Part shown: positions 15,257-52,508 of the stretch, one piece after another
Numbering within the stretch: position 1 is the stretch's first letter
How the letters are laid out: the number at the start of each line of letters is the position of its first letter
Source of the DNA: an uncultured Muribaculaceae bacterium
Lineage (GTDB): Bacteria > Bacillota_I > Bacilli_A > RF39 > UBA660
Length of the DNA stretch: 63,372 nt
Reading direction: 5' to 3'
Assembly (NCBI GenBank): GCA_964370545.1
Contig: CAYJJQ010000004.1
Coordinates: forward strand, 1 to 63,372
Notes under the pieces: model-generated
What the model was told of the DNA's origin: nothing
Databases searched by the model: none
Seen by the model: only the letters and a program-made list of their open reading frames with translations
Position numbers and translations under genes: made by a program

Positions 15257-16630
15257 ATGAAACTAAATAAAAAGAGTATTTTAATTAGTTTAGGAGTAAT
15301 TATATTATTAGTAGGAGGCTACTTTCTTTTTTCAGTTTATTTAAATAATAATGAATTAGTAGTAAGTAGTGATAATAACGATAATGAAATCTTTGCAGTA
15401 TTCTTAGAAACAGGATATGATACAAATGTATATAACTACTCAGAAGTTACTGAGTGGCCAGCAGATTATATTTTTAATTCGGAAAAGTCATACTGTACAT
15501 ATGGTTCAGAGTTATCTTGGGATGGTACTGGAGTAGCAGTATCTTTATCAGGTTCAGATATATGTTATGTTTATTTTAAGGTTCCGCCAGATATTTATTT
15601 AGCAAGCATGACGCTTAATGGAAGTGCTACATCAAGTATTCCTACTAAAACTGACACTATGTTTGTAGGTGTAAGCTGCGCTAATGCTACAGGTAAATGG
15701 AATTATGAAGATTGGTATTTAGAAGTAGATAATGTAACTGATAAAGTAAACTGTAGTGTTGATTTTACGAATGTAACTAATCCTCCTACAGTAGCGCAGC
15801 ATATTATAGATCTTCATAGTGGTACTGATGGAACAGAAGGTATATATTATACAAACTCATCAGAATATAGATATACAGGAATGGCACCAAATAATTACAT
15901 ATGGTTTAATGATGAACTATGGAGAATAATAGGGGTATTTGATGGAGATTCTCATGGAAGAGATGGAGAGAATTTAGTAAAGATAATAAGTGAAGATACT
16001 TATTCATATGCTTTTGATACGGCAAATGATAACTCGTGGGCTGACTCAGGAGGAGGAGCAACGCTTAATACGCTTTATAATACATATTATTATAATAGTA
16101 CAAATGGAACAAGTTATGCAGGGTGTCGTGGACACTCAAGTTCATTAACAAAGTCATGTGATTTTACAAACTCAGGATTAGATGCAGAAGCAAGAGAAAT
16201 GGTGCAAAGTGTAACGTGGTATTTGGGAGGGCACTCTATATCAGGAGTAACGGCAAGCGTAATGTATGGGTACGAAAGAGGAAGTACTGTATCAAGCGGG
16301 ACATATACCAGCACAACAGCAAATATAGGATTAATGTACGCAAGTGATTATGGATATGCAGCACCACCTAGTTGTTTAACGACAAATTTAAGTAGCTATA
16401 ATACTGCTGCATGTGGAGGTAATAATTGGCTTTTAGAAAACCAATATGAATTTACACTAACGGCCACCTCCACTACCTCGAACTTTGTGTGGAGTGTCGG
16501 CTATCACGGCGGCGTGACCAACATCAACGTTTACATCGGCTATGCCTCTCGGCCAGTCTTGTATCTGAAATCTTCTTTGGTATATTTAGGAGGAACGGGA
16601 AGCGAAGCTGATCCGTTCATAGTAGGATAA
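15257..16630 (+). CDS. DGR target protein 1 (long-N-terminus form): membrane-anchored extracellular protein with C-terminal variable region
   Basis: N-terminal TM anchor. The C-terminal segment contains VR1, which matches the TR with adenine-specific differences. Paralogous to 19070, 20346 and 21744. Confidence 0.85.
   Translation: MKLNKKSILISLGVIILLVGGYFLFSVYLNNNELVVSSDNNDNEIFAVFLETGYDTNVYNYSEVTEWPADYIFNSEKSYCTYGSELSWDGTGVAVSLSGSDICYVYFKVPPDIYLASMTLNGSATSSIPTKTDTMFVGVSCANATGKWNYEDWYLEVDNVTDKVNCSVDFTNVTNPPTVAQHIIDLHSGTDGTEGIYYTNSSEYRYTGMAPNNYIWFNDELWRIIGVFDGDSHGRDGENLVKIISEDTYSYAFDTANDNSWADSGGGATLNTLYNTYYYNSTNGTSYAGCRGHSSSLTKSCDFTNSGLDAEAREMVQSVTWYLGGHSISGVTASVMYGYERGSTVSSGTYTSTTANIGLMYASDYGYAAPPSCLTTNLSSYNTAACGGNNWLLENQYEFTLTATSTTSNFVWSVGYHGGVTNINVYIGYASRPVLYLKSSLVYLGGTGSEADPFIVG
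16459..16549 (+). other. DGR variable repeat VR1
   Basis: Gap-free alignment to TR 18571..18661 (offset 2112). By hand count there are about 17 differences at TR adenines and 2 at non-adenines. 12 of 15 AAY template codons are changed. Confidence 0.85.
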
Positions 16631-16653
16631 AAAGGAGAAGATAGAATAAAACA

Positions 16654-16679
16654 AACCGCCGGCAGGCGGTTATATTTTT
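16654..16679 (+). terminator. GC-rich terminator hairpin after target gene 1
   Basis: aaccgcc-ggca-ggcggtt followed by atattttt; the identical stem-loop follows target gene 2. Confidence 0.75.
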
Positions 16680-16754
16680 AATAAAAATATAATCATGTGC
16701 TAATATTAAACAATTGAAAAGTTTACATTATATTTATAATTCAAATAAAAAAAG

Positions 16755-16783
16755 TTGACAATATGTAAATGTGCGGGTATGAT
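16755..16783 (+). promoter_or_regulatory. Candidate sigma-70-type promoter for the DGR accessory/RT operon
   Basis: TTGACA (16755), 17-nt spacer, TATGAT (16778). Confidence 0.45.
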
Positions 16784-16875
16784 TAATATAGAGGTGATGT
16801 ATAATAAAAACAAAATTATCTATAATTGGTAATCGTGGTTCTTTTTGTCATGTATATAATGAAGATGCGTATATT

Positions 16876-17169
16876 ATGAATAATTTATTTAATTATAAAA
16901 TAATTGAGGGTAATAAGGTTGGTTTTCCTAAAACTGCTTTGTTAAAAATTACACAAAAACTTGATGAACTTAAAATATCATATGAAATTACACAAATTGG
17001 AGAAGATGTAAAAAGAAAATTATACAAACAAAATAATTATGATAAATATTATGATGAGGCCAAAGAAAAAATATCATTTGAAAACAAATTAGAATTGGCA
17101 TTAAAAAAACTTGAATTTATGAAACAAAGCGATGTTCTTAAAGTAATTGAGTTTATAAATGAGTATTAG
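16876..17169 (+). CDS. Small DGR accessory protein resembling MutS mismatch-binding domain I (MSL-like)
   Basis: The pattern G.F..vYnEDA..mnnL....i......vGFPktal.kitqkLdelkisYEitQ parallels E. coli MutS [11 protein letters not shown]...[25 protein letters not shown]. The similarity continues upstream of the ATG. Confidence 0.45.
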   Translation: MNNLFNYKIIEGNKVGFPKTALLKITQKLDELKISYEITQIGEDVKRKLYKQNNYDKYYDEAKEKISFENKLELALKKLEFMKQSDVLKVIEFINEY

Positions 17170-17512
17170 TAGTAATAAGTTTTTAATTGCTGTTAAAATG
17201 AAAAAATATATAATTAGTTCTAAAACCTTAGTTAATAATATACCTAAAAGTGATTATGTATATCGCGATGAATATAGGGGAGTATTAGTCAGAACTTTGG
17301 AGAATATATATTATGCTAATAATGATATAACCAAAACAAAATATTTATCAATAATAAAAGGAAATTTAGAAATTATTGATTTTTATTTGGAATTATTTTT
17401 AAAATTCAAGTATATTTCTGAAAAAGAGTTTGAAAAACATGCAAAGCTTTTAAGTGAAATTTATAAAATGACAGTGTCCTGGTTAAAAAAATTGGAAGAT
17501 GAAAAAAGTTAA
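17159..17512 (+). CDS. avd: Avd-like accessory variability determinant (four-helix-bundle protein)
   Basis: 117 aa, helical. The pattern ...IPKSDY.YRDEY....VRTLENIYYAN...L.IIDFYLELF.KFKYISEKEF is typical of Avd / S23-IVS four-helix-bundle proteins. Overlaps the RT start. Confidence 0.7.
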   Translation: MSISSNKFLIAVKMKKYIISSKTLVNNIPKSDYVYRDEYRGVLVRTLENIYYANNDITKTKYLSIIKGNLEIIDFYLELFLKFKYISEKEFEKHAKLLSEIYKMTVSWLKKLEDEKS

Positions 17513-18560
17513 TATATTTGATATAAATGAGATTTATGAATCTCTAAGTAAAAATATTAAGAATAAAAATTCATTATACTTATTTGAAAAGAATAAAATG
17601 ATATATTTAAATCATATTAAAGAAACTTTGAATAGTAGTTATGATGGAGGGAAATATAATATTTTTCTTTTAAAATATCCTAAAAAAAGAATAATAATGA
17701 GTCAATCAATAATAGATAAAATAATAAATCACTATGTTACAAAACATATACTGGAAGAAAAACTTAAAAAGTACTTGGATAAAAGAAATGTTGCGACAAG
17801 AAAAAACATGGGAACAAGTTATGGTATAAAATTATTTATGCAGTACATTAACAAATTAAAGTTTGAATATGATGATATATATGTACTAAAATTAGACATT
17901 AAAAATTATTTTCCAAGTATTGATCACTGTGAGTTAAAAAAATTACTTGTTGATAAACTAGATTCTTTTGAATATGGAATTATTGAAAATATAATTGATA
18001 GCACTAATCATTCTTATGTTAATGATAAAATTGTAAAAATAAATGAAAAAAACAACTTAAATTTACCATTATATGATAATGGTAAGGGTTTGCCTATTGG
18101 AAATATGACCTCCCAATTTTTAGCAATTTTTTATTTACATGAATTTCATCATTATTTAATTCATAAACAAAAACTTAAGTATTTTGTTAATTATATGGAT
18201 GATTATGTAATTATTTGTCCAGATAAAGACTATTTATCAAGATGTAAAAAGGAAATCATTAATTTTTTAAGCACTTATAAATTAGAAATTAATGAAAATA
18301 AAACACGTATCAATCACATTTCAAACGGAGTTAACTTTTTAGGATATAAGTTTATAATGAAGGATAACAATAGGTTAATAGTCAAATTAAGTAGTAAGTC
18401 AAGACAAAATATAAAATATAATTTAAAAAAAAGAAAATATGAATATAAAACAAATGAAATTGATATTAATAGTTATTTTAGCACTACAATGACATATAAA
18501 TATGGATTCAAATTTAGTAAAAGTAATAAAGTGAAAAAAATAATAAAAAAATATGGGTAA
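17499..18560 (+). CDS. DGR-type reverse transcriptase
   Basis: RT motifs KLDIKNYFPSIDH and YMDDYVII (YxDD), plus the DGR-diagnostic LPIGNMTSQ (I/LGxxxSQ) motif. Confidence 0.9.
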   Translation: MKKVNIFDINEIYESLSKNIKNKNSLYLFEKNKMIYLNHIKETLNSSYDGGKYNIFLLKYPKKRIIMSQSIIDKIINHYVTKHILEEKLKKYLDKRNVATRKNMGTSYGIKLFMQYINKLKFEYDDIYVLKLDIKNYFPSIDHCELKKLLVDKLDSFEYGIIENIIDSTNHSYVNDKIVKINEKNNLNLPLYDNGKGLPIGNMTSQFLAIFYLHEFHHYLIHKQKLKYFVNYMDDYVIICPDKDYLSRCKKEIINFLSTYKLEINENKTRINHISNGVNFLGYKFIMKDNNRLIVKLSSKSRQNIKYNLKKRKYEYKTNEIDINSYFSTTMTYKYGFKFSKSNKVKKIIKKYG

Positions 18561-18570
18561 TTTTTTATGA

Positions 18571-18661
18571 AAAAGCCAACTCCACTAACTCGAACAATGT
18601 GTGGAATGTGAACTATAACGGCAACGTGAACAACAACAACGCTAACAACGGCAATGCCTCT
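18571..18661 (+). other. DGR template repeat (TR)
   Basis: Non-coding, 10 nt after the RT stop. 15 of 29 codon-equivalents are AAC/AAT. GC-rich relative to its surroundings. Matches VR1 and VR2. Confidence 0.85.
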
Positions 18662-18800
18662 TTTTCTTTAGCTTATTGATTTTGTTTAATTAAGGGTAAG
18701 CCTTTAATTACAAGAGTTAATAAACATAAATTATCCCTGGGTTTTCCTAAATGATAATTGCAAATAAGAAAGGATTAGTCTATTTTCTAGGGGTGATGTA

Positions 18801-19067
18801 ATGAAAAATAAATATGATTTCTTAAAAACTATATATAAGAATAAATTAGTAGTTTTTAAGAAAAAGAATAATATAAAATCATTTGGTATAGATCAAATGA
18901 TTTTATATTATTTAAAGATAGAAACTAAAGAAGATTTAAAAAAAGTTAATTTTGACTTTATATTATTTGATAATTTTGATATAATTGATATGAAAATAGA
19001 AGGTAGTAATAAATATAATAATTATGTATTGATAGTATCATTATTAAAAAAATTGAAAGGAATGTAA
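18801..19067 (+). CDS. Hypothetical small protein (88 aa) between TR and target gene 2
   Basis: ORF with a GGGGTGA RBS, ending 2 nt before target gene 2. Only a weak resemblance to the N-terminal part of the 16876 ORF. Confidence 0.45.
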   Translation: MKNKYDFLKTIYKNKLVVFKKKNNIKSFGIDQMILYYLKIETKEDLKKVNFDFILFDNFDIIDMKIEGSNKYNNYVLIVSLLKKLKGM

Positions 19068-19069
19068 TT

Positions 19070-20212
19070 ATGAAAAAGAAAATTATGTATGTGTGTTTAT
19101 TTTTTGTGATTGGAACTATAGGTTTTATCTATTATTTTAAAAATAGTAATAATGAACAAAATGAGTTTTCTTCTTCTGTAAAATATGCTATCAATGTAGA
19201 TGGAGTGAGTCAAAATACTTTTCCTTCAAGTGGTAATTATGATGTTAGTGTAAATTGTGATAATGCAGTAGGAGAGTGGGATTATAAACTTGCTGGGGTA
19301 AAATTCACTAGTATTTCTGGTCCGACTGAATGTGCAGTTACTTTTACAAGTACAGCAAGTAAAACTACTATGTCAAATTATATTATAAATACTTTATATG
19401 CAGGTACTGAAGGTAGAAATGGTATATATTATACAAACTCATCAGAGTATAGATATACAGGATTAAATCCAAATAATTATATATGGTTTAATGATGAACT
19501 ATGGAGAATAATAGGAGTATTTGATAAAGATTCCCATGGAAGAGATGGAGAAAATCTAGTAAAAATAATAAGCGAAGATAGCTATACATATGCATTTGAT
19601 ACAGCAGATGATAACTCGTGGGCTGACTCTGGAGGAGGAGCAACACTTAATATTCTATATAACACATACTATTATAATAGTATAAATGGAACAAGTTATG
19701 CAGGGTGTAGGGGATATTCAAGTACAATAACAAAGTCATGTGATTTTAAAAACTCAGGATTAGATGTAGAAGCAAGAGAAATGGTGCAAAGTGTAACGTG
19801 GTATTTGGGAGCACATTCTACAACAGGAGTAACAGCAAGCGTAATGTATGGATATGAAAGAGGAAGTGTTGTATCAAGTGGAACATATACCAGCACAACA
19901 GCAAATATAGGATTAATGTATGCAAGTGATTATGGATATGCAGCACCAGCAAGCTGTTTGACAACAAATTTAAGTGGTTATAATACTGCTGCATGTGGAG
20001 GTAATAATTGGCTTTTAGAAAACCAATATGAATTTACACTAACAGCCAGCTCCACTAACTTGAACCGTGTGGGGATTGTGAGCTATAACGGCAACGTGAA
20101 CAACAACAACGTTTTCTACGGCTATGCCTCTCGGCCAGCCTTGTATCTGAAATCTTCTTCGGTATACTTAGGAGGAACGGGAAGCGAAGCTGATCCGTTC
20201 ATAGTAGGATAA
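19070..20212 (+). CDS. DGR target protein 2 (short-N-terminus form): membrane-anchored protein with C-terminal variable region
   Basis: N-terminal TM anchor. The C-terminal half is about 90% identical to target 1. Contains VR2. Confidence 0.85.
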   Translation: MKKKIMYVCLFFVIGTIGFIYYFKNSNNEQNEFSSSVKYAINVDGVSQNTFPSSGNYDVSVNCDNAVGEWDYKLAGVKFTSISGPTECAVTFTSTASKTTMSNYIINTLYAGTEGRNGIYYTNSSEYRYTGLNPNNYIWFNDELWRIIGVFDKDSHGRDGENLVKIISEDSYTYAFDTADDNSWADSGGGATLNILYNTYYYNSINGTSYAGCRGYSSTITKSCDFKNSGLDVEAREMVQSVTWYLGAHSTTGVTASVMYGYERGSVVSSGTYTSTTANIGLMYASDYGYAAPASCLTTNLSGYNTAACGGNNWLLENQYEFTLTASSTNLNRVGIVSYNGNVNNNNVFYGYASRPALYLKSSSVYLGGTGSEADPFIVG

Positions 20213-20261
20213 AAAGAGAAAGAAAGAACCAAATAAACCGCCGGCAGGCGGTTTTTATTTT
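19421..20261 (+). repeat. Direct repeat copy 2 (about 0.84 kb)
   Basis: See copy 1 (15839..16679). Confidence 0.8.
20041..20131 (+). other. DGR variable repeat VR2
   Basis: Gap-free alignment to the TR (offset 1470). About 10 differences at TR adenines and 3 at non-adenines. 7 of 15 AAY codons are changed, and a central block is identical to the TR. Confidence 0.85.
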
Positions 20262-20262
20262 T
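20236..20262 (+). terminator. GC-rich terminator hairpin after target gene 2
   Basis: aaccgcc-ggca-ggcggtt plus a T run. Confidence 0.75.
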
Positions 20263-20345
20263 GGTTAAAAATCATTATAACTTAAATAAGTATTATTGTG
20301 GGTTATCTTTATTTATGATATACTTTTATAGTAAGGATATAGGGT

Positions 20346-21725
20346 ATGGCACTAACAAAAAGAAATATTGTGTTGTGTATTATATTAATTTTGATTGTAA
20401 CACTTAGTTACACTCTTTTTAGTGTAGCAAACTCTAAAAATATATTAAAAACAGATGCAACTAATGAAAATGAACTTTTTTCAGTATTTTTGGAATCAAC
20501 AGAAGGTTCTAATGTCTATACTTATACAGAAGTTACAGAGTGGCCAACAGATTACGTCTTTAATGCAACAAAATCATACTGTACATATGGTTCAGAGTTA
20601 TCTTGGGACGGAGTCGGAGTTTTTGTATCACTAACAGGTTCTGATGAGTGTTTTGTTTATTTTAAATATCCACCAGATATTTACTTATCAAGTTTAACTT
20701 TAGATGGTGTGCCAGTTTCTTCTATACCTGCTAAGTCAGATAATTTAAGAGTAGATACAACATGTACTAATGCTGATGTTAAATGGGACTATAATGAATG
20801 GTCATATAGTATTGAAAACGTAACAAATAAAGTGAGTTGTTCTATTAGTTTTGTTACAATCAATAATACACCTAATCTTTCAGATTATATTATTGATTTA
20901 CATAATGGTGTTAATGGAACTGATAGTATATATTTTACAAATAATTCAGAATATAGATATACAGGATTAAATCCTAATAATTTTATTTGGTTTAATAATG
21001 AATTATGGCGTATTATAGGTGTGTTTGATGATAATTCTCATGGGCAAACTGGAGAAAACTTAGTTAAGATAGTCAACGAAAAATCTTTTACATATGTACT
21101 TGATACAGGAAATGATAATTCATGGGCCGATTCAGGGGGAGGAGCAACTTTAAAAACTCTTTATAATACATACTATTATAACAGTACAAATGGTACATCT
21201 TATACAGGTTGTTCTGCTGATAGAACAACTGCAAAAAGAAGTTGTGATTTTACATATTACGGTTTAGGTCCAAAAGAAAGAGAATTAACTGCTGAAACTA
21301 CTTGGTATTTAGGAGCTATCAATACTAGTGGGAGTGTTACTGCATTAGGTGCTTATAATATGGAACGCAGCAGCACTGTTACCAGCGGTACATATTCTAC
21401 TACAAATGCGTATATTGGACTAGCATATTTAAGCGATATGGGTTACGCGTCAGAATACTCATGTTGGACTAGCAGTGTTGATCTATTTGGCTATCAACAT
21501 AATAATTATTGCGCCAATAATTGGTTTTTAGAAAAAAATGATAAAACAATAACTTTTTCTGGCGAGTATGGCACTACAACAGAAATAGTTGGTTATGATA
21601 GTTCGATGGATTATTATTCTGCAAATAATGGTTGGTATAACACATACCCAACCTTGCACTTAACTGCTGATGCTAAATACATTGATGGTAATGGTACTTT
21701 AATAGATCCATATATTATTAATTAA
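20346..21725 (+). CDS. Non-diversified paralog of DGR target 1 (long-N-terminus form)
   Basis: Shares the N-terminal domain with 15257 (ELFSVFLE..NVYTYTEVTEWP.DY.FN..KSYCTYGSELSWDG) and the central YRYTG..PNN.IWFN.ELWRIIGVFD core. Its C-terminus has no TR match. Confidence 0.8.
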   Translation: MALTKRNIVLCIILILIVTLSYTLFSVANSKNILKTDATNENELFSVFLESTEGSNVYTYTEVTEWPTDYVFNATKSYCTYGSELSWDGVGVFVSLTGSDECFVYFKYPPDIYLSSLTLDGVPVSSIPAKSDNLRVDTTCTNADVKWDYNEWSYSIENVTNKVSCSISFVTINNTPNLSDYIIDLHNGVNGTDSIYFTNNSEYRYTGLNPNNFIWFNNELWRIIGVFDDNSHGQTGENLVKIVNEKSFTYVLDTGNDNSWADSGGGATLKTLYNTYYYNSTNGTSYTGCSADRTTAKRSCDFTYYGLGPKERELTAETTWYLGAINTSGSVTALGAYNMERSSTVTSGTYSTTNAYIGLAYLSDMGYASEYSCWTSSVDLFGYQHNNYCANNWFLEKNDKTITFSGEYGTTTEIVGYDSSMDYYSANNGWYNTYPTLHLTADAKYIDGNGTLIDPYIIN

Positions 21726-21743
21726 AAAGAAAGGAAAACAAAT

Positions 21744-22880
21744 ATGAAAAAAAAATATACAATTTCTATATGTAGTGCAATAATTCTTATATTTGTTTTT
21801 ATAGTTACATATATAAATAATAGCAGTGATTCAGAAGAATTAATAAATTATGCAATATTAGTTGATGGCATAAGTCAAAATAGTTTTCCTCTTTCTGGAA
21901 ACTATGATGTAACAGTTACTTGTGATAATGCAACAGCATCGTGGGATCATAAAATTAGAGGAATAAAATTCGCTGAAATAAATGGCCCATCTGAATGTAA
22001 TGTGAACTTTACTACCAAAACATCAGCATCTACGACTATGTCAAATTATGTTATTAATACATTATATGCAAATACGGCAGGTAGAAATGGAATTTATAGA
22101 ACAAATAATGCTGAATATAGATATACAGGATTAGCTCCAAATAACTATATTTACTATAATGATGAATTGTGGAGAATAATAGGAGTTTTTAATTCAAATT
22201 CTCATGGAAATGCTAATCAAAATTTAGTTAAAATCATTAATGAAAAATATTTTTTTAGCAGCTATGGTTCTTTTTTAAACTCAGACGGTTCATCTACACC
22301 TCGCAATGCTTGGGAACTGACTGATGGCGAGGAGGCCTATATAAATATGTACCTAAATACATTATATTATAATTCAAGAGATTGGAATCATGCGAATGCT
22401 TTTTTTCAAGTAAACGGATTAGATTTAGAGGCTAGAAACATGATTCAATCATCAACATGGTATCTAGGAGGAAGAACTTCTGCAAGTTATAACGCCTCAG
22501 AATTTTACAGTTATGAAAGAAGCTCTAATGTATCATCTATTTCTAAGGTTAGTTCTATAGATAATATAGGATTAATGTATGTAAGTGACTTTGCATATGC
22601 TGCTCAATATTCATGCTGGAATTCAGGATATGATTTAAGTGCATATAGTAATACTACGTGTGCTGCTGCTAATTGGTTATCATCATCGTTTCAAGAAATG
22701 ATGATTACTCCTGATATATCTGATACAACACAAATCTTTTATATTAACGAAATTGGTTCAATAGGAGCAGCAAATGCTACTATTGGATGGACTTATAGAC
22801 CTACATTATATTTAAAAGAATCAGTATATTATATTTCGGGAACAGGTACTCAAACTGATCCATTTATAATAGGGTATTAA
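21744..22880 (+). CDS. Non-diversified paralog of DGR target 2 (short-N-terminus form)
   Basis: Shares the N-terminal domain with 19070 (YAI.VDG.SQN.FP.SGNYDV.V.CDNA...WD.K..G.KF..I.GP.EC.V.FT). The C-terminus ends ...GWTYRPTLYLKES but is AT-rich with no TR match. Confidence 0.8.
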   Translation: MKKKYTISICSAIILIFVFIVTYINNSSDSEELINYAILVDGISQNSFPLSGNYDVTVTCDNATASWDHKIRGIKFAEINGPSECNVNFTTKTSASTTMSNYVINTLYANTAGRNGIYRTNNAEYRYTGLAPNNYIYYNDELWRIIGVFNSNSHGNANQNLVKIINEKYFFSSYGSFLNSDGSSTPRNAWELTDGEEAYINMYLNTLYYNSRDWNHANAFFQVNGLDLEARNMIQSSTWYLGGRTSASYNASEFYSYERSSNVSSISKVSSIDNIGLMYVSDFAYAAQYSCWNSGYDLSAYSNTTCAAANWLSSSFQEMMITPDISDTTQIFYINEIGSIGAANATIGWTYRPTLYLKESVYYISGTGTQTDPFIIGY

Positions 22881-25239: not shown

Positions 25240-25316
25240 GGACCTCTAGCTCAGTTGGTTAGAGCATCCGGCTCATAACCGGGCGGTCGTAGGTTCAAGT
25301 CCTACGAGGTCCACCA
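25240..25316 (+). tRNA. tRNA with CAU anticodon (elongator Met or lysidine-dependent Ile2)
   Basis: Cloverleaf with acceptor ggacctc/gaggtcc, anticodon loop cuCAUaa, T-arm gtagg-ttcaagt-cctac and an encoded CCA. Met and Ile2 cannot be told apart by eye. Confidence 0.9.
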
Positions 25317-25319
25317 TAT

Positions 25320-25404
25320 GCAGGTATGGCGAAATTGGTAGACGCGCTAGACTTAGGATCTAGTGGATTACTCCATGGGGGTTCAAGTCCCTCTACCTGC
25401 ACCA
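25320..25404 (+). tRNA. tRNA-Leu (UAG anticodon), long variable arm
   Basis: Acceptor gcaggta/tacctgc, anticodon loop cuUAGga, long extra arm and an encoded CCA. Confidence 0.9.
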
Positions 25405-31376: not shown

Positions 31377-31455
31377 ATGATTCCTTCAAAAATATTGTAT
31401 CAAATTTCATAGGAAAAATCTATAAAACTATTTTTATAAATAAACTGTATTTTAA

Positions 31456-31485
31456 TTGACTAATAGTAAATTAAAATGTTATAGT
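31456..31485 (+). promoter_or_regulatory. Promoter of small-peptide mRNA, copy A
   Basis: TTGACT, 18-nt spacer, TGtTATAGT (extended -10). Predicted TSS near 31492. Confidence 0.55.
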
Positions 31486-31491
31486 TAATTT

Positions 31492-31725
31492 GGAAGACTT
31501 AGATTAAGTGCTTGCCTTCAACATCAGGGGGACCTCGAGGGGAGGCTGATATTATGAAAAGAAATGATATATTAATATTGTTTTTAATTATAATAATTAT
31601 ATTACTAATAGCCTCTTTATACAAAGCTATATAATATAAAAACAGCACTTAATTCGTATTTGAATTAAGTGCTAACACAAAAGTGGCAAGTGCTTAGCTT
31701 GAATTCTAAGTACTTCCTTTTTATT
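31492..31725 (+). other. Candidate type I toxin mRNA, copy A (structured, about 230 nt)
   Basis: 5' ggaag-acttag-ttaagtgcttgcc pairs with 3' ggcaagtgcttag...ctaagt-cttcc. gccttc can pair with the SD ggaggc. Ends in a U tract. Paralogous to 51672..51913 (-). Confidence 0.55.
31554..31634 (+). CDS. 26-aa hydrophobic peptide MKRNDILILFLIIIIILLIASLYKAI (candidate type I toxin)
   Basis: GGAGG SD 8 nt upstream. Charged N-terminus plus a single TM helix. The length and sequence are conserved in copy B. Confidence 0.6.
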   Translation: MKRNDILILFLIIIIILLIASLYKAI

Positions 31726-31744
31726 TTATGTAAGTATTTCTTAC
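31636..31744 (-). ncRNA. Candidate antisense sRNA (antitoxin), copy A
   Basis: Minus-strand promoter TTGACA-17-TGaTAAGAT (31751..31779). Minus-strand terminator: 12-bp hairpin 31644..31673 followed by GUUUUUAU. Overlaps the 3' ~90 nt of the peptide mRNA. Confidence 0.5.
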
Positions 31745-31859
31745 AAATTCATCTTATCAAAAACTTTACTTTTTGTCAAATTCAACTTTTGGATTTACTT
31801 ATGTATCATTAACTATACCAAACTAAAAAAATGATGTATAATTATACTATGAGGGCATT

Positions 31860-32744
31860 ATGAAAAAAGAAATATTTAACTTAGATAAAAATATAGAAGA
31901 TTACTTATCATATTTAAAGTATGAAAAAAAATTGTCAAGTAATACTTATGAATCATATAAAGATAATCTAAAAAAGTTTAATATGAATTTTCCAAATCAA
32001 AATATACTTAAATTAAAAGTAGATGATATTAAAGATTATTTATATGGTATTCAGCTAAGTGCTAAAACTAAAGCGCATTATATAACTGTGATTAATTCAT
32101 TTTATAATTTTTGTATAACAGAAGGTAAAATAGATAAATCGCCTGTAGCAGGAATTAAAATGCCTAAAATAGAAAAGAAATTACCTAACTATTTAAGTAT
32201 TGATGAAACAAATAAATTGCTTGATATAAAATTAATTAAACCCATAGATTATCGTAATAAAGCAATGCTTGAAGTATTATATGGAACAGGTATTAGAATT
32301 ACAGAATTGTGTACTCTTACATTATCTCAAATAGATCCAGTATCTTGCAGTATTAAAATAATGGGGAAGGGAAAAAAAGAAAGAATAGTTCCGCTTAATA
32401 GTTTTGCGCTAAATTATTTAAATGTGTATATTAAAGAATATAGATCATATATTCTTAAAACCAAGAGTAGTGAATATGTATTTATAAATAATTTAGGAGG
32501 GCCTATATCTAGGCAAGGATTTTTTAAAATTATAAAACAGTTATGTCAAAAAAGTGGTATAGACAAGGATGTATCACCACATACTTTAAGACATTCTTTT
32601 GCTACCCATCTTTTAAATAATGGAGCTGATTTAAGAGTAATTCAAGAAATACTTGGTCATGAAAATTTAGTAACTACTGAAATATATGCTCACTTACAAA
32701 ACAAAAAAATAGCAGATGATTATTCTAATCATCCGCATGCATAG
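31860..32744 (+). CDS. xerD: Tyrosine recombinase, XerD-like
   Basis: SAM-like N-terminal domain, R...HTLRHSFATHLL..GADLRVIQEILGH......IYAH catalytic motifs, 294 aa. Confidence 0.8.
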   Translation: MKKEIFNLDKNIEDYLSYLKYEKKLSSNTYESYKDNLKKFNMNFPNQNILKLKVDDIKDYLYGIQLSAKTKAHYITVINSFYNFCITEGKIDKSPVAGIKMPKIEKKLPNYLSIDETNKLLDIKLIKPIDYRNKAMLEVLYGTGIRITELCTLTLSQIDPVSCSIKIMGKGKKERIVPLNSFALNYLNVYIKEYRSYILKTKSSEYVFINNLGGPISRQGFFKIIKQLCQKSGIDKDVSPHTLRHSFATHLLNNGADLRVIQEILGHENLVTTEIYAHLQNKKIADDYSNHPHA

Positions 32745-43934: not shown

Positions 43935-44945
43935 ATGTCTAAAACTATTAAAAGTATAGTTACTGAAGAATTTAATGTAGTGAAAACAAATTTAAATAAC
44001 TTTAAAGGTAACTATGAACAATTTTATGATAATAAAAAGGAAAAAATTAGTGATATAAGTTTACCAGTAAAAATATTAATTAAGTACTTAGAATCATGTA
44101 AGAATAATAAAATATCTTCTACTGCTGATGAAATACTTGATATGAGGTTATCAGAAGAGTTTAAAGATTATGATGATGAAGAACTTATGATGATGGGACC
44201 ATTTAAACCATTAGAAGAAGAATTAATACTATTTATGAATTCAGGTATTCAAAAATACTTTGAAGATCATGGAAGTTTACTTACTAAAGAATTTGAATAT
44301 TTTCAAAGATTAGAAAAAAAACATAAATTTAAAGAAAGTACTAAATATGCTAAATTAGTAAATCATTTCATATTAGTATCTTTTGAAAATGCTACTAATG
44401 ATATACTTTCTATAACAAATGGGGAACTTGAAGAAACTTTAGTTAAATATTTTGAATATACTAAAATAAATCTTACTAAAGAAGATTTTGCAATATTTTT
44501 AAAAGATTTATATTTTAAAAATATTAGCAAAGCATTAGAAGAAATAGAAAAGTTACTTTCATTAAATGAATTTTCAGAACTTGAAAAATCATTATTTATT
44601 AAATTAATTAAAAAATTCATAGGTAATAAATTTCCAGTTTCTTCAGACAATTCTTTAGAAGATATTATAAAAAAATATAATACTGAAGATATTTTATCAA
44701 TTAATCCAAGTTTACTTAAACATAATATACTAGAAGTTATCTTAGAAACTAGAATTAATGCTTTAGAAGCAGAATTGACTTCTTTAGAAGTAAAACTAAG
44801 TGAACTAAGCCATAGATCATCATATGGTCATAAACAAGATATTCAAGAAGAAATAAAAGAGTGCAATATAGAAAAAGGTATGCTAAAAAAATATTTAAAT
44901 AGTCATACAGAATTAAAGCAAGTAGATGGAAGAAAACGTATTTAA
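43935..44945 (+). CDS. Hypothetical helical protein (336 aa)
   Basis: Long ORF with a GAGGTAAAA RBS that overlaps the xerC-like start; no family recognised. Confidence 0.5.
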   Translation: MSKTIKSIVTEEFNVVKTNLNNFKGNYEQFYDNKKEKISDISLPVKILIKYLESCKNNKISSTADEILDMRLSEEFKDYDDEELMMMGPFKPLEEELILFMNSGIQKYFEDHGSLLTKEFEYFQRLEKKHKFKESTKYAKLVNHFILVSFENATNDILSITNGELEETLVKYFEYTKINLTKEDFAIFLKDLYFKNISKALEEIEKLLSLNEFSELEKSLFIKLIKKFIGNKFPVSSDNSLEDIIKKYNTEDILSINPSLLKHNILEVILETRINALEAELTSLEVKLSELSHRSSYGHKQDIQEEIKECNIEKGMLKKYLNSHTELKQVDGRKRI

Positions 44946-45813
44946 ATATTTAACATATTTAGATAAAGAATTAAACTATTCAAGTGAGACTATTAAAAAT
45001 TATGAAATAGATTTAATTTACTTTAATAAATATTTAAATGAAAATAATTATAACTATTTAAAACTAACTAAAGATAATATTAGAAATTACTTAAAATACC
45101 TTGATAGTTTTAAACTAAGTAATAAAACTATCGCCAGAAAATTAAGTTCTCTTAGAAGCTACTATGATTATTTACTTGTAAATAATTATATAACTTCAAA
45201 TATATTTAGTGCTATAAGCAATCCTAAAGTGGAAAAGAAACTACCTAAAGTACTTAATTATGAAGAAATAGAAACTTTATTTGATAGTATAGATACTAAT
45301 ACTATTTATGGGGTTCGTAATAGGTTAATATTAGAATTAATTTATTCTAGTGGATTTAGATTAAGTGAAGTAATAAGTATTAAATTAAAAGATATAAATA
45401 AAGGTGACCTATCTATAAAAATAATGGGTAAAGGTTCTAAAGAAAGAGTAGTATACTATGGAGCATATGTAGCTAAGTATTTAGAATTATATTTAAATAA
45501 CTCTAGAAGCATACTATTAAATAATAAAACTAGTGAATATTTACTAATAAATAAATTTGGTAATCCATTGGGTAAATCTATGATAGAAAAAATAGTTAAA
45601 AATAGTGCTAAAGAAGTTTGCTTAAAACACAACATTAGCCCGCATACTTTAAGGCATTCATTTGCTACTCATCTACTTAATAGTGGTGCAGATATAAAAA
45701 CAGTACAAAACTTATTAGGACATGAAAGTTTAGGTACTACCCAAATATATACTCATGTATCAAATGATAGAATAAAAGAAGTTTATTTAAAGACTCATCC
45801 GAGAGAAAAATAA
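44926..45813 (+). CDS. xerC: Tyrosine recombinase, XerC-like
   Basis: R...HTLRHSFATHLLNSGADIKTVQNLLGHESLGTTQIYTH catalytic motifs, 295 aa. Confidence 0.8.
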   Translation: MEENVFKYLTYLDKELNYSSETIKNYEIDLIYFNKYLNENNYNYLKLTKDNIRNYLKYLDSFKLSNKTIARKLSSLRSYYDYLLVNNYITSNIFSAISNPKVEKKLPKVLNYEEIETLFDSIDTNTIYGVRNRLILELIYSSGFRLSEVISIKLKDINKGDLSIKIMGKGSKERVVYYGAYVAKYLELYLNNSRSILLNNKTSEYLLINKFGNPLGKSMIEKIVKNSAKEVCLKHNISPHTLRHSFATHLLNSGADIKTVQNLLGHESLGTTQIYTHVSNDRIKEVYLKTHPREK

Positions 45814-48963: not shown

Positions 48964-51588
48964 ATGGAAAAGTATGTTTATGCCTTTAAAGAAGGTAAAA
49001 AAGAAATGAAAGAAATACTTGGTGGTAAAGGTGCTAATTTAGCTGAAATGACTTCAATTGGCCTTCCAGTACCTCAAGGGTTCACAGTTTCAACAGAAGC
49101 ATGTAATAAATATTATGCAGATGGAGAAACATTAAGTGATGAAGTGATAAAGCAAATATATTCAAAGTTAGAAGAACTTGAAGGTATATCTGGTAAAAAG
49201 TTTGGTGATTTACACGATCCTTTATTAGTATCAGTTAGATCTGGTGCTAGAGCAAGTATGCCAGGAATGATGGATACAGTTCTTAACTTAGGACTTAATG
49301 ATGAAGTAGCAGAATCTTACGGTAAAAAAATTAATAATGAAAGATTTGTATATGATTCATATCGTAGATTTATTCAAATGTTTTCAGATGTAGTAATGGG
49401 TTTCCCTAAATCATCTTTCGAAAGACTATTTGATAAAATTAAAGAAGAAAAAAATATTAAATATGATACTGATTTAACAGCAGATGATTTAAAAGATGTA
49501 GTAGCAGTATTTAAAGGAGAATATTTAAAACACGCAGGTAAAGAATTTCCTAGTGATCCAAAAGAACAATTAATTGAATCAATTAAAGCTGTATTTAGAT
49601 CATGGAACAATGAGCGTGCCAATACTTATCGTAGACTTAATGATATTCCAGCATCATGGGGAACAGCAGTTAATATTCAAGAAATGGTTTATGGAAACAG
49701 TGGGGATAATTCTGGTACTGGTGTTGCTTTTACAAGAAATCCAGCAACAGGAGATAAACATTTATATGGTGAATACTTGATTAATGCACAAGGTGAAGAT
49801 GTAGTAGCAGGTATTAGAACTCCTAATGATATAGATACACTTAAAGATGTAATGCCAGATTGCTATGATGAATTTGTAAAAATATGTGATATACTTGAAA
49901 ATCATTACAAAGACATGCAAGATATGGAATTTACTATAGAAAATGGTAAACTTTATATGCTGCAAACTAGAAATGGAAAAAGAACTGCAGAAGCAGCACT
50001 TAAAATAGCAGTGGATATGGTAAATGAAGGCATGATCACAAAAGAGGAAGCTATTTTAAAAGTAGAACCTAAACAACTTGATCATTTGCTTCATCCAATG
50101 TTTGATACAGATGCTCTTAGTAAAGCAAAGGTAATTGCTAAAGGATTAGCAGCATCACCAGGAGCAGCTACAGGTAAAATCTATTTTACTGCTGAAGATG
50201 CAATGCATGCTAGTGAAACAACAAAAGAAAATGTACTTCTTGTTAGACTTGAAACATCACCTGAAGATATTGAAGGTATGGTAGTTGCAAAAGGAGTGCT
50301 TACAATTAGAGGTGGTATGACATCACATGCAGCAGTTGTTGCTCGTGGTATGGGTACTTGTTGTGTATCTGGTTGTGGTGAACTTAAAATAGATGAAGAA
50401 GCTAAAACTGTTACAACTAAAGATGGTACTGTATATAAAGAAGGTGATTATATGTCACTTGATGGATCAACTGGTAATGTATACGGAGAAAATATTAAAA
50501 CAGTAGAACCTACTATTAGTGGAAATTTTGAAACATTTATGAAATGGGCTGATGAAATCAGAGTACTTAAAGTAAGAGCTAATGCAGATAATAAAAAAGA
50601 TGCACAAACTGCTAGAAAATTTGGTGCAGAAGGTATTGGTTTATGTCGTACTGAGCACATGTTCTTCGATGAAAAAAGAATATTTGAATTTAGAAAAATG
50701 ATTACAGCTGAAACAAAAGAAGCTAGAGAAGAAGCTCTTAATAATATTTTACCTTATCAAAGAGCAGACTTTGAAGAACTATTTGAAGAAATGGAAGGGT
50801 ATGGAGTTACTATTCGTTATCTAGATCCACCACTTCATGAATTCTTGCCTCATGCTGATGAAGATATTAAAACTTTGGCAGATGCTCTTAATATATCTTT
50901 TGATAAATTAAAAGAAAGAGTAGAAAGCTTAAAAGAATTTAATCCTATGATGGGACACCGTGGTTGTAGATTAAGTATTAGTTATCCTGAAATAGCTGTT
51001 ATGCAAACAAGAGCAGTTATTGAAGCAGCTATTAATGTAACTAAGAAGGGTAAAACCGTTGAACCGGAAATAATGATTCCTTTAGTAGGAGATGTTAAAG
51101 AACTTTCTTATATAAAAGAAATAGTTATTAAAACTATTAATGAAGTATTTGAAAAAGAAAAAATGGAAATTAAGTATTTAATAGGTACAATGATTGAAGT
51201 TCCAAGAGCTACAGTTACTGCTGATAAAATTGCAAAAGAAGCAGAGTTTTTCTCATTTGGAACAAATGACTTAACACAAATGACTTATGGTTTTTCTAGA
51301 GATGATGCTTCTAAATTCTTAGAAGATTATTATAGCAAGCAAGTATTTGAATTTGATCCATTTGCTAAAATAGATACTGAAGGCGTTGGAGCATTAATGA
51401 AAATTGCTGTTCAAAAAGGAAAAGAAGAAAGAAAAGATATTAAGCTTGGGATATGTGGAGAACACGGTGGGGAAACTTCATCAGTGTATTTCTGTCACAC
51501 ACTAGGACTTAATTATGTATCTTGTTCACCTTTTAGAGTTCCAATTGCTAGACTTGCAGCAGCACAAGCCGTAATTATTAATAATTAA
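48964..51588 (+). CDS. ppdK: Pyruvate, phosphate dikinase
   Basis: 874 aa with the phosphohistidine motif GGMTSHAAVVARG and the PEP-utilising C-terminal domain (GICGEHGG). Confidence 0.95.
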   Translation: MEKYVYAFKEGKKEMKEILGGKGANLAEMTSIGLPVPQGFTVSTEACNKYYADGETLSDEVIKQIYSKLEELEGISGKKFGDLHDPLLVSVRSGARASMPGMMDTVLNLGLNDEVAESYGKKINNERFVYDSYRRFIQMFSDVVMGFPKSSFERLFDKIKEEKNIKYDTDLTADDLKDVVAVFKGEYLKHAGKEFPSDPKEQLIESIKAVFRSWNNERANTYRRLNDIPASWGTAVNIQEMVYGNSGDNSGTGVAFTRNPATGDKHLYGEYLINAQGEDVVAGIRTPNDIDTLKDVMPDCYDEFVKICDILENHYKDMQDMEFTIENGKLYMLQTRNGKRTAEAALKIAVDMVNEGMITKEEAILKVEPKQLDHLLHPMFDTDALSKAKVIAKGLAASPGAATGKIYFTAEDAMHASETTKENVLLVRLETSPEDIEGMVVAKGVLTIRGGMTSHAAVVARGMGTCCVSGCGELKIDEEAKTVTTKDGTVYKEGDYMSLDGSTGNVYGENIKTVEPTISGNFETFMKWADEIRVLKVRANADNKKDAQTARKFGAEGIGLCRTEHMFFDEKRIFEFRKMITAETKEAREEALNNILPYQRADFEELFEEMEGYGVTIRYLDPPLHEFLPHADEDIKTLADALNISFDKLKERVESLKEFNPMMGHRGCRLSISYPEIAVMQTRAVIEAAINVTKKGKTVEPEIMIPLVGDVKELSYIKEIVIKTINEVFEKEKMEIKYLIGTMIEVPRATVTADKIAKEAEFFSFGTNDLTQMTYGFSRDDASKFLEDYYSKQVFEFDPFAKIDTEGVGALMKIAVQKGKEERKDIKLGICGEHGGETSSVYFCHTLGLNYVSCSPFRVPIARLAAAQAVIINN

Positions 51589-51614
51589 AACTCGATTTTG
51601 ATACTTAAATATTA

Positions 51615-51643
51615 TTGAAATTAACAATTTCTTATGTTAAGAT
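51615..51643 (+). promoter_or_regulatory. Promoter of candidate antisense sRNA, copy B
   Basis: TTGAAA, 17-nt spacer, TGtTAAGAT. The same -10 and downstream GAAT.TGTAAG are found at the copy A antisense promoter. Confidence 0.55.
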
Positions 51644-51649
51644 GAATAT

Positions 51650-51766
51650 GTAAGTAAGAAATTACATACAATAAAAAAAGGAAGCGTTTAAAGAGGGTTT
51701 TAAGCGCCTACCTTTCGTTTTGGGTGGCACCTAATTCAGATCTATTAGAATTAAGTGCCTTTTTTT
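51650..51766 (+). ncRNA. Candidate antisense sRNA (antitoxin), copy B
   Basis: Starts behind the 51615 promoter. Ends at hairpin ggcacctaattc...gaattaagtgcc (51726..51759) plus 7 U. Overlaps the 3' ~90 nt of the minus-strand peptide mRNA. Confidence 0.5.
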
Positions 51767-51913
51767 ATGCTAGCTTATAAATAGAGGCCAGCGATAAAAT
51801 AAGTAATATGATTAAAAATAATATTAAAATATCTTTTCTATTCATAATATTTAAGCCTCCCTTCGAGGTCCCCCTGAAGTGGTGAAGGCAGACACTTAAC
51901 TTTAAAAACTTCC
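51672..51913 (-). other. Candidate type I toxin mRNA, copy B (structured, about 240 nt)
   Basis: 5' ggaag...ttaagtgtctgcc pairs with 3' ggtaggcgcttaa...cttcc, with compensatory changes relative to copy A. TATAAT -10 at 51922..51927 (-). U tract at the 3' end. Confidence 0.55.
51765..51845 (-). CDS. 26-aa hydrophobic peptide MNRKDILILFLIILLILSLASIYKLA (candidate type I toxin)
   Basis: GGAGG SD 10 nt upstream. Same length as copy A, and about 70% identical to it by eye. Confidence 0.6.
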   Translation of the reverse strand: MNRKDILILFLIILLILSLASIYKLA

Positions 51914-52067
51914 AGTTAGTTATTATAAATGGTTATTACTAAAAATACTGTCGAATTATATTTAAAAATTAATTATTTATAAACTGTATATAATTATGTA
52001 ATATTATAGCAAATGAATTGACAGAACCTTTATAATTTTGATATTCTAAAATTAGAAAGGATGTAGA

Positions 52068-52508
52068 GTGATGAGAATAATTAAATTTGCAGCAATAGCT
52101 GTGTGCGCTGGCTTATTATTAACAGGATGTGGAGCAGAAGAAGCTGACGATAATACAAAAGCATTATCTTGTACTTTAAGCGCAGAATTTTTATCTGAAG
52201 AAAATTCTGTTGAAATCATGTTTGAAGAAGACAAAATAGTAAGCTCAGAAATGTCTTTTGGTTCAAATACAGGTTTTGGTCAAAGTTATGCAGATTCAGT
52301 TTGTGATGCGTATGAATTATATGAAGGCTTAACATGTAATGCTACAGTTGAAAATCCAGATATGGATGATGTATATTCAACATATAATATTACTGTAGAC
52401 AATGAAACATCTACTAAAGCATTTTTACTTTCTAAAGAAAGTATTGATGCAACAACATATGAAGAATTTAAAACAGCACTTGAAAGTTTAGACTACGTTT
52501 GTAAATAA
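52068..52508 (+). CDS. Lipoprotein (146 aa)
   Basis: Signal peptide with lipobox LLLTGC; acidic mature part with paired cysteines. Confidence 0.7.
   Translation: MMRIIKFAAIAVCAGLLLTGCGAEEADDNTKALSCTLSAEFLSEENSVEIMFEEDKIVSSEMSFGSNTGFGQSYADSVCDAYELYEGLTCNATVENPDMDDVYSTYNITVDNETSTKAFLLSKESIDATTYEEFKTALESLDYVCK

Follow-up and report, generated by a model that had tools for sequence, protein, structure and literature searches.

Contig CAYJJQ010000004.1 (assembly GCA_964370545.1, from an uncultured bacterium) was analysed over its whole length of 63 kilobases (kb), hereafter the window. It contains two paralogous loci, A and B, in each of which a gene for a peptide of 26 amino acids (aa) faces a putative gene for an antisense RNA. 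We found that loci A and B are probably chromosomal type I toxin-antitoxin-like modules of a family not yet described, as judged from the nucleotide sequence and from modelled RNA structures. The family is a candidate new one; the type I toxin-antitoxin class itself is known, and the toxicity of the peptide is predicted by analogy. A first-pass annotation had proposed that locus B is a second functional copy of the peptide/antisense module, and this proposal was supported by alignment, joint folding, substitution-placement, chimeric-arm and codon-position analyses as well as by promoter and terminator scans. Copy counts given below are counts within the window and not genome-wide numbers.

Organization of the two loci

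In locus B, the peptide gene lies on the minus strand and the antisense gene on the plus strand. As a check on the elements of this locus, we read the minus strand of positions 51400-52150 together with the listing of open reading frames (ORFs), and all the elements named in the first-pass annotation were located where it had placed them, including the ORF of the 26-aa peptide. The features of locus B are as follows (SD, Shine-Dalgarno sequence; UTR, untranslated region; nt, nucleotides).

51765..51845, minus strand: peptide ORF, 26 codons plus stop, encoding MNRKDILILFLIILLILSLASIYKLA
51922..51927, minus strand: -10 box TATAAT of the putative peptide mRNA promoter, aligned with TATAGT of locus A
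51674..51913, minus strand: predicted peptide mRNA, about 240 nt, from GGAAG to the U-run after the terminator
51855..51876, minus strand: 5' UTR core CAGGGGGACCUCGAAGGGAGGC, with the SD GGAGG at 51860-51856 inside
51885..51913, minus strand: 5' arm of the predicted terminal duplex (H0 51913-51900, H1 51899-51885; anti-SD GCCUUC 51889-51884)
51680..51714, minus strand: 3' arm of the predicted terminal duplex (H1 partner 51714-51700, H0 partner 51693-51680)
within 51680..51714, minus strand: predicted intrinsic terminator of the mRNA, the same bases as the duplex 3' arm; U-run 51679-51673
51615..51643, plus strand: putative antisense promoter, TTGAAA 51615-51620, 17-nt spacer, extended -10 TGtTAAGAT 51635-51643
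51650..51766, plus strand: predicted antisense (antitoxin) RNA, about 117 nt, reaching the stop codon
51726..51766, plus strand: predicted antisense intrinsic terminator, hairpin 51726-51759 and T7 51760-51766

The corresponding features of locus A are as follows.

~31456-31779, plus strand: whole module, with the same architecture as locus B
31456..31485, plus strand: putative peptide mRNA promoter, TTGACT, 18-nt spacer, TGtTATAGT (-10 TATAGT 31480-31485)
31492..31727, plus strand: predicted peptide mRNA; terminal duplex of 31492-31515 with 31686-31717; terminator hairpin 31688-31715
31554-31634, plus strand: peptide ORF, encoding MKRNDILILFLIIIIILLIASLYKAI
31636..31779, minus strand: putative antisense RNA gene, TTGACA 31779-31774, 17-nt spacer, TGaTAAGAT ending at 31751
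~31744 to 31636, minus strand: predicted antisense RNA; terminator hairpin 31674-31643, then T-run

An SD and a 26-codon ORF are thus common to both loci. So are promoter-like sites that face each other, with extended -10 boxes at positions that align, and two hairpins of the terminator type, one with its U-run on each strand. The loci could be aligned over about 390 nt with 80% identity. The identity was 80-87% over the stretch that starts at the mRNA 5' end and takes in two-thirds of the ORF (about 87% in the 5' UTR) and 50-70% along the 3' UTR and the antisense promoter, and it was at the background of about 40-50% beyond the promoters, that is, outside ~31455-31780 and 51960-51612. The 5' UTR core CAGGGGGACCTCGA(A/G)GGGAGGC, annotated as near-identical in the two copies, occurs exactly twice in the window (51876-51855, minus strand, and 31525-31546, plus strand) and was found in 0 of 100 shuffled sequences; the second occurrence of the core CAGGGGGACCTCGARGGGAGGC is what defines locus A. 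The cores of A and B are identical at 21 of 22 positions and differ at one loop base.

The sequence GGAAG lies 7-9 nt downstream of the aligned -10 boxes in both loci, and the predicted 5' end of the B mRNA is at about 51913. Locus B has a perfect -10 box, TATAAT (51927-51922), but no convincing -35 box was found upstream of it; a separate TTTATA-17-TATAAT site is present about 30 nt further upstream (51983-51955, minus strand). Thus, the B mRNA has a less certain 5' end than the A mRNA. The peptide mRNAs of A and B may be at different expression levels. There is no gene downstream on the peptide strand of locus B, where the module converges on ppdK, and the idea of a leader peptide or attenuator was dropped for this reason.

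With its 26 aa, the peptide is predicted to span the membrane once. Its N-terminus is charged, I6-I22 form an unbroken hydrophobic core of about 17 residues, Y-K stands near the C-terminus and proline is absent. Like the small (<60 aa), hydrophobic type I toxins, the peptide has a predicted transmembrane segment. The ORFs of A and B differ 12, 7 and 3 times at codon positions 3, 1 and 2, respectively; six codons show synonymous change only, and the replacements are mostly I/L or K/N. By the Nei-Gojobori method, the proportions of synonymous (pS) and nonsynonymous (pN) differences were 0.56 and 0.21, and the ratio of nonsynonymous to synonymous substitution (dN/dS) was about 0.23, values from a small sample of 26 codons. 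The other two reading frames of the region are riddled with stop codons. Judged from the sequence, the codon pattern is that of a translated peptide constrained in its hydrophobicity. As the synonymous sites are near-saturated, the duplication is old, and the persistence of 21/22 identity in the core and about 87% identity in the 5' UTR after an old duplication indicates selection on the nucleotide sequence. In the midst of this near-saturated synonymous divergence, the Ala20-Ser21 codons GCC TCT are invariant in both copies (51783-51788, minus strand; 31611-31616, plus strand). The GCCUCU within the coding sequence is complementary to the SD GGAGGC, with which it pairs in the RNAalifold consensus fold, and it is a possible third anti-SD.

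On the antisense strand of both copies, a putative near-consensus promoter lies just beyond the mRNA terminator and is directed back to the ORF. The annotated conservation of this promoter held, since spacing and extended -10 are equal in A (TTGACA-17-TGaTAAGAT) and B. The first strong terminator on this strand is in both copies the hairpin that follows the stop codon together with its T-run, and that of A was picked up by the terminator scan. In locus B the post-stop hairpin is present at 51759-51726 as annotated, with the 7-T run at 51760-51766 on the plus strand; on the mRNA strand the hairpin is preceded by A7 and hence is no terminator in the mRNA direction. One compensatory change, A-U to G-C, distinguishes the antisense terminator hairpin of B from that of A. 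The predicted antisense RNAs, about 109 nt in A and about 117 nt in B, would begin with a small hairpin that lies outside the overlap, followed by a segment complementary to the mRNA terminator, an unpaired linker and the terminator hairpin. They are perfectly complementary to about 90 nt of the cognate mRNA 3' UTR (-149 kcal/mol in A, -164 kcal/mol in B), and the values with the non-cognate 3' UTR were -58 to -62 kcal/mol; from these energies, cross-talk between A and B would be weak. An antisense gene with its own promoter and terminator and with complementarity to the toxin mRNA, as expected of type I systems, is therefore predicted at both loci.

No significant additional complementarity of the antisense RNA to the mRNA 5' region was found, as 14-33% of shuffled antisense RNAs matched the best duplex. 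Thus, a contact outside the overlap of the Fst/SprA1 type is not supported, and trans pairing with the 5' UTR in that style was dropped. Between the stop codon of ppdK (51588) and the antisense terminator (51726-51766), the scan detected nothing resembling a terminator, so that read-through from ppdK may cross the module and add to the antisense transcript. If this is true, the antitoxin supply would be coupled to a highly expressed glycolytic gene.

Modelled pairing of the mRNA ends and the ribosome-binding site

The mRNAs were folded from GGAAG to the terminator U-run. The fold z-scores of the two mRNAs were -5.4 and -5.6, the latter for locus B in a slightly shorter version, and the locus B mRNA had a minimum free energy (MFE) of -78.5 kcal/mol. 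In the MFE and centroid structures of both mRNAs, the 5' and 3' ends are joined by a two-part terminal duplex. H0 comprises GGAAG plus 7 base pairs (bp), and its partner is the terminator's 3' arm plus CC; H1, of 12-15 bp, is the helix of the first-pass annotation. The annotated 5'-3' helix is supported by covariation, but it is longer than had been described, about 24-28 bp, and extends about 12-14 nt further 5' to GGAAG. Among the changes in this helix, the U-A to C-G double change and the G-C/G-U switches were confirmed, but there are four one-sided changes and not two.

The duplex energy was -31.2 kcal/mol in A and -33.3 kcal/mol in B. Dinucleotide shuffles of the 5' arm gave -12±3 kcal/mol (-12.0±3.1 for B), and 0 of 2000 shuffles were as good in each case. 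Chimeric combinations of arms (A5'-B3' and B5'-A3') were 8-10 kcal/mol worse than the cognate arms. In the joint fold of A and B by RNAalifold, which the first-pass annotation had suggested as a check, 62 pairs were formed with none broken, 4 compensatory and 9 one-sided changes; pairing was 100%, compared with 36-51% when the partners were slid by 1-3 columns, although this structure was derived from the same two sequences that were tested and relatedness alone inflates measures of pair conservation at n=2. A one-sided substitution-placement test is free of this bias. When the MFE structure of A alone was mapped on B, 10 pairs were broken, against 22.7±2.8 with random placement of the substitutions (0/5000); the reverse test, with the B structure on A, gave 34/5000.

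As the 3' arm of the duplex consists of the terminator bases, the terminal duplex and the terminator hairpin are mutually exclusive. The closed form was more stable than the form with the terminator hairpin by 9.5 kcal/mol (A) and 12.4 kcal/mol (B). We then modelled the probability of being unpaired for the SD GGAGG and for the first 5 nt of the mRNA, mimicking antisense binding by constraining the 3' UTR to be unpaired.

Nascent mRNA of 60-190 nt: SD at most 0.08 (at most 0.04 in 9/10 lengths); first 5 nt 0.38-0.94
Free full-length mRNA: SD 0.19 (A) and 0.40 (B); first 5 nt 0.00
mRNA with the 3' UTR occupied: SD 0.01-0.02; first 5 nt 0.38 (A) and 0.95 (B)

In the models, the SD of the nascent RNA is sequestered by the invariant helix GCCUUC:GGAGGC. 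In the free full-length RNA, the terminal duplex draws GCCUU(C) off the SD partly (A) or wholly (B), and when the 3' UTR is occupied, GCCUUC:GGAGGC re-forms and the 5' end is single-stranded. The annotated pairing of GCCTTC (51889-51884) with GGAGGC (51860-51855) was accordingly recovered in the folds of the nascent or antisense-bound RNA. From the z-scores and the closure of the nascent SD, both mRNAs are predicted to be structured messages with a sequestered ribosome-binding site, as are type I toxin mRNAs.

These models suggest the following mechanism. During synthesis, the GCCUUC anti-SD would shut the SD, and the message would not be translated co-transcriptionally. After termination, the mRNA would refold, with its first ~25-29 nt pairing with its last ~35 nt in place of the terminator hairpin. 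The refolded form would bury both ends, which should stabilise the RNA, and would free the SD partly or wholly from GCCUU(C). The antisense RNA mimics the mRNA 5' end and would rival it for pairing with the 3' UTR. Its binding would displace the 5' end, giving a long duplex and a 5' end open to 5' exonuclease, and would release the 5' anti-SD GCCUUC to shut the ribosome-binding site again. Decay and translational block would act jointly. A long RNA duplex is a typical substrate of ribonuclease (RNase) III. We infer the transcripts, the toxicity, the involvement of RNase and the choice of the translated conformer.

A bolder version of this scheme, which we hold to be doubtful, is that the mRNA cyclised end to end is the translation-competent and nuclease-protected state of the toxin message, the opposite of hok and aapA1. 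The antitoxin would then act indirectly. By capturing the 3' UTR, which would itself be the 'anti-anti-SD', it would release the 5' anti-SD to shut the ribosome-binding site and would uncap the 5' end for decay. This would be a three-state switch (nascent-closed, cyclised-open and antitoxin-closed) made with one 25-nt 5' segment and two alternative partners.

Known type I systems and alternative explanations

T1TAdb describes for every Gram-positive type I family an antisense RNA at the 3' side with partial overlap (PMC8594479). A and B share this arrangement: the predicted antisense RNA comes from the 3' side and covers the 3' part of the mRNA as far as the stop codon, leaving out the ORF. 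The Bacillus subtilis systems bsrG/SR4, bsrE/SR5, bsrH/as-bsrH, txpA/RatA and yonT/SR6 are similarly convergent and 3'-overlapping, with a small hydrophobic toxin. In bsrG/SR4, binding of the antitoxin at the 3' end promotes decay and extends the SD sequestration from 4 to 8 bp (PMC3834814), a toggle that resembles the 4-0 bp to 6 bp modelled here via GCCUUC:GGAGGC. However, the B. subtilis peptides are of 28-60 aa and those of the present module of 26 aa without a charged C-terminal tail, and the overlap in the B. subtilis families also covers the ORF (T1TAdb, PMC8594479), whereas that of the module covers only the 3' UTR. In addition, remodelling in the module would act by displacing the 5'-3' terminal duplex, unlike in bsrG-type systems, and the loci are in core chromosomal context and not in prophages as in B. 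subtilis. In searches with protein families and Rfam, neither the peptide nor the RNAs resembled TxpA/BsrG, BsrE/BsrH or YonT in sequence or profile.

The par system (Fst/RNA II) of the Enterococcus faecalis plasmid pAD1 also has convergent promoters, an mRNA of about 230 nt and a small membrane-associated peptide. The Fst mRNA folds back on itself so that its extreme 5' end (in the 'upstream helix') and its SD are sequestered in helices (PMC7472228). In our models, H0 and H1 likewise sequester the 5' terminus of the module mRNA (probability of being unpaired 0.00), an Fst-like feature that we take as functional analogy and not homology. The par RNAs share one bidirectional terminator and interact via direct repeats at the mRNA 5' region, whereas the module has two separate terminators and its antisense RNA was not found to pair with direct repeats in the 5' region. 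Neither the Fst profile nor the PXXXG motif was found in the peptides with Pfam and NCBIfam.

For hok/sok and aapA1/IsoA1, a long-distance 5'-3' interaction is reported to lock the full-length mRNA, with successive metastable structures preventing co-transcriptional translation (PMC9841398, PMC6733600, PMC5416894). The long-range 5'-3' pairing of these toxin mRNAs resembles that of the module. However, both systems are Gram-negative, and their antisense RNA targets the 5' UTR or the translation-initiation region, within the mRNA (PMC8594479), unlike the module antisense RNA, which would target the 3' partner of the closing duplex. The closed form of hok and aapA1 is inert and is activated by 3' trimming, whereas the closed form of the module has the more open SD in the models. 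The position of the antisense gene 3' of the ORF and the lack of a Hok-type Pfam match also set the module apart from Hok and AapA.

The Clostridioides difficile modules (CD2517.1/RCd8, CD2907.1/RCd9 and CD0956.2/RCd10, among others) exist in multiple paralogous chromosomal copies and have no homology to other families (PMC6563280). They too have convergent, overlapping toxin and antisense genes in a low guanine-plus-cytosine (GC), spore-forming Firmicute. Their toxins, by contrast, are of 34-59 aa with lysine-rich C-termini and are mostly located in prophages or beside clustered regularly interspaced short palindromic repeat (CRISPR) arrays. No similarity to toxins of the CD0956.2/CD2517.1 type was detected in whole-collection protein searches or by tblastn against phages and plasmids.

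Several points weigh against the toxin-antitoxin reading. The covariation is real but modest, as two sequences give low power and the floor of the shuffle control is at 35/500 (1/16). The promoters, the transcript ends and the antisense RNA are predictions based on consensus sequences, and the putative peptide promoter of locus B is without a -35 box. The peptide is without the charged C-terminal tail that is typical of Gram-positive type I toxins (PMC6563280) and, at 26 aa, is below the length of every one of these. In the models of locus A, the change of the SD between the free and the antisense-bound mRNA is small (4 bp versus 6 bp), and the GCCUCU within the coding sequence can also pair with the SD, so that the translatable conformer is uncertain. 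Finally, no homologue was found in the collections and genomes scanned, and conservation across species is therefore not demonstrable.

A rival explanation is a small membrane protein gene under cis-antisense regulation whose product is not a toxin but a benign regulatory or structural micro-protein that, for example, modulates a transporter or a sporulation step, the antisense RNA tuning its level. Such a gene shares the coding and RNA evidence with the toxin-antitoxin reading; moreover, the peptide does not have the cluster of charged C-terminal residues that type I toxins usually carry (PMC6563280), both loci are in core chromosomal context and not in a prophage or plasmid, and there is no match to a toxin family. 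We nevertheless regard this explanation as unlikely, because three features are found together: an extremely structured mRNA in which several partners can redundantly sequester the SD, a dedicated antisense RNA with a near-consensus extended -10 promoter, and paralogous duplication. Type I toxins are searched for by this combination (PMC2887945, PMC8594479), which is unusual for benign micro-proteins.

The terminal duplex contains seven G·U and no A·C pairs, and the corresponding duplex of the opposite strand is weaker by 8-15 kcal/mol. This asymmetry indicates selection on the sense RNA and not a DNA inverted repeat. It therefore counts against the view, to which we give very little credence, that the loci are a non-coding convergent pair of small RNAs or a structured repeat resembling a miniature inverted-repeat transposable element (MITE), with a DNA-level terminal inverted repeat and a fortuitous ORF, left as relics of a mobile repeat. 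Two inverted intergenic copies 20 kb apart, complementary termini of about 25 bp around about 170 bp, and a peptide without a known homologue are what such an element could look like. However, the 12/7/3 codon bias, the synonymous changes and the opening of this frame only point to translation, conservation runs past the 'termini' into the antisense promoter, and the 63 kb of the window contain only two copies and the about 107 kb from relatives none. The DNA-level inverted repeat was dropped on the G·U asymmetry. Neither strand-symmetric complementarity of the termini nor a high copy number was found in the window.

A recent duplication without selected function, in which the A/B similarity is common descent and the structure comes from AT-rich DNA with two terminators, is hardly credible and already disfavoured, for although kinship alone inflates pair conservation at n=2, pS of 0.56 is near saturation while the UTR core is identical at 21/22 positions, identity varies strongly from one part of the module to another, paired positions are spared or compensated far beyond what random placement of the substitutions gives, and the fold z-scores are -5.4 to -5.6.

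Distribution and neighbouring sequences

The first-pass annotation had called for a search for further copies. None besides A and B was found in the window, and none in the related genomes or collections scanned. For protein collections, the query was a 40-aa TTG-extended ORF that includes 14 residues not belonging to the peptide. A word-indexed search of 5.8 billion protein clusters gave nothing that shared words with the ORF, and an exhaustive phmmer search of 1.84 billion representatives gave no match at E<=0.001. The peptides had no match at E<=10 in Pfam or PADLOC, and in NCBIfam only a match far below the threshold (E 0.48, 10 bits; cut-off 33 bits), to a generic subfamily of small membrane proteins. 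In PHROGs, both peptides weakly matched phrog_15860, a 38-residue phage family whose function is not assigned, from residue 1 (E 0.06-0.09, about 14 bits); this match could be driven by composition and is kept as a lead only.

At the nucleotide level, a permissive Rfam search of both loci gave a best E of 0.76 and no antitoxin family, and blastn and tblastn against plasmids and phages gave nothing relevant. An exact scan for the UTR core in 185,579 species-representative genomes, with a pattern that was over-strict, gave 7 matches, all by chance and in high-GC genomes. The peptide pattern used on metagenomes (SD, M-[KN]-x-[KN]-[DE], five hydrophobic residues, Y-K-x-x-stop) gave one match, a false positive that reads through in frame as a long signal-anchored protein. 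Five scans of viral contigs (core, hairpin and three peptide patterns) gave only high-GC chance matches, one long ORF, and matches of 9-11 codons that lie out of frame within a phage gene. In the case of five related loci from metagenome-assembled genomes (MAGs), about 107 kb around ppdK including the gaps of 56-281 nt downstream of ppdK, no module was found by nhmmer and a small-ORF filter. The closest PpdK has 80% identity, sporulation genes are present in the related MAGs, and for synteny there were no records for the window's own proteins. The module family appears to be lineage-restricted or to have diverged past the search patterns.

Two paralogous genes for tyrosine recombinases of the XerC/XerD type are present in the window (31860-32744 and 44926-45813); they have a 148-nt repeat in common with 73% identity. 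Modules A and B are inverted, with their ORFs inward, and flank a 20-kb segment that holds both recombinase genes. A xerD-like gene is found a short distance upstream of ppdK in related genomes. Two adjacent tRNA genes (25240-25401, plus strand) were the only Rfam matches in the window at the gathering threshold. The window also contains a diversity-generating retroelement at 15257-22880 (core 17159-18661), with the following parts.

17159-17512: bAvd-like accessory gene
17499-18560: reverse transcriptase
18571-18661: A-rich 91-nt template repeat, directly after the reverse transcriptase
16459-16549: variable repeat at the 3' end of the target ORF 15257-16630
20041-20131: variable repeat at the 3' end of the target ORF 19070-20212

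The variable repeats differ mainly at A positions, the targets are paralogous, and two more target paralogues are located at 20346-21725 and 21744-22880.

In the module as modelled, a 5' segment of about 25 nt pairs with either the SD or the 3' UTR, and the 3' UTR has three possible partners: the 5' end, its own bases (forming the terminator) and the antisense RNA. If confirmed, this would be a compact and testable case of a 3'-binding antisense RNA that controls a ribosome-binding site about 150 nt away. With 26 aa, the peptide ranks among the shortest candidates from Gram-positive bacteria. The two loci also illustrate that annotation based on proteins does not see modules of this kind, as a related ORF had been called by no gene caller in any collection. 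The two loci would, if confirmed, represent a new type I family from a thinly sampled, low-GC (about 27%), spore-forming lineage of Firmicutes.

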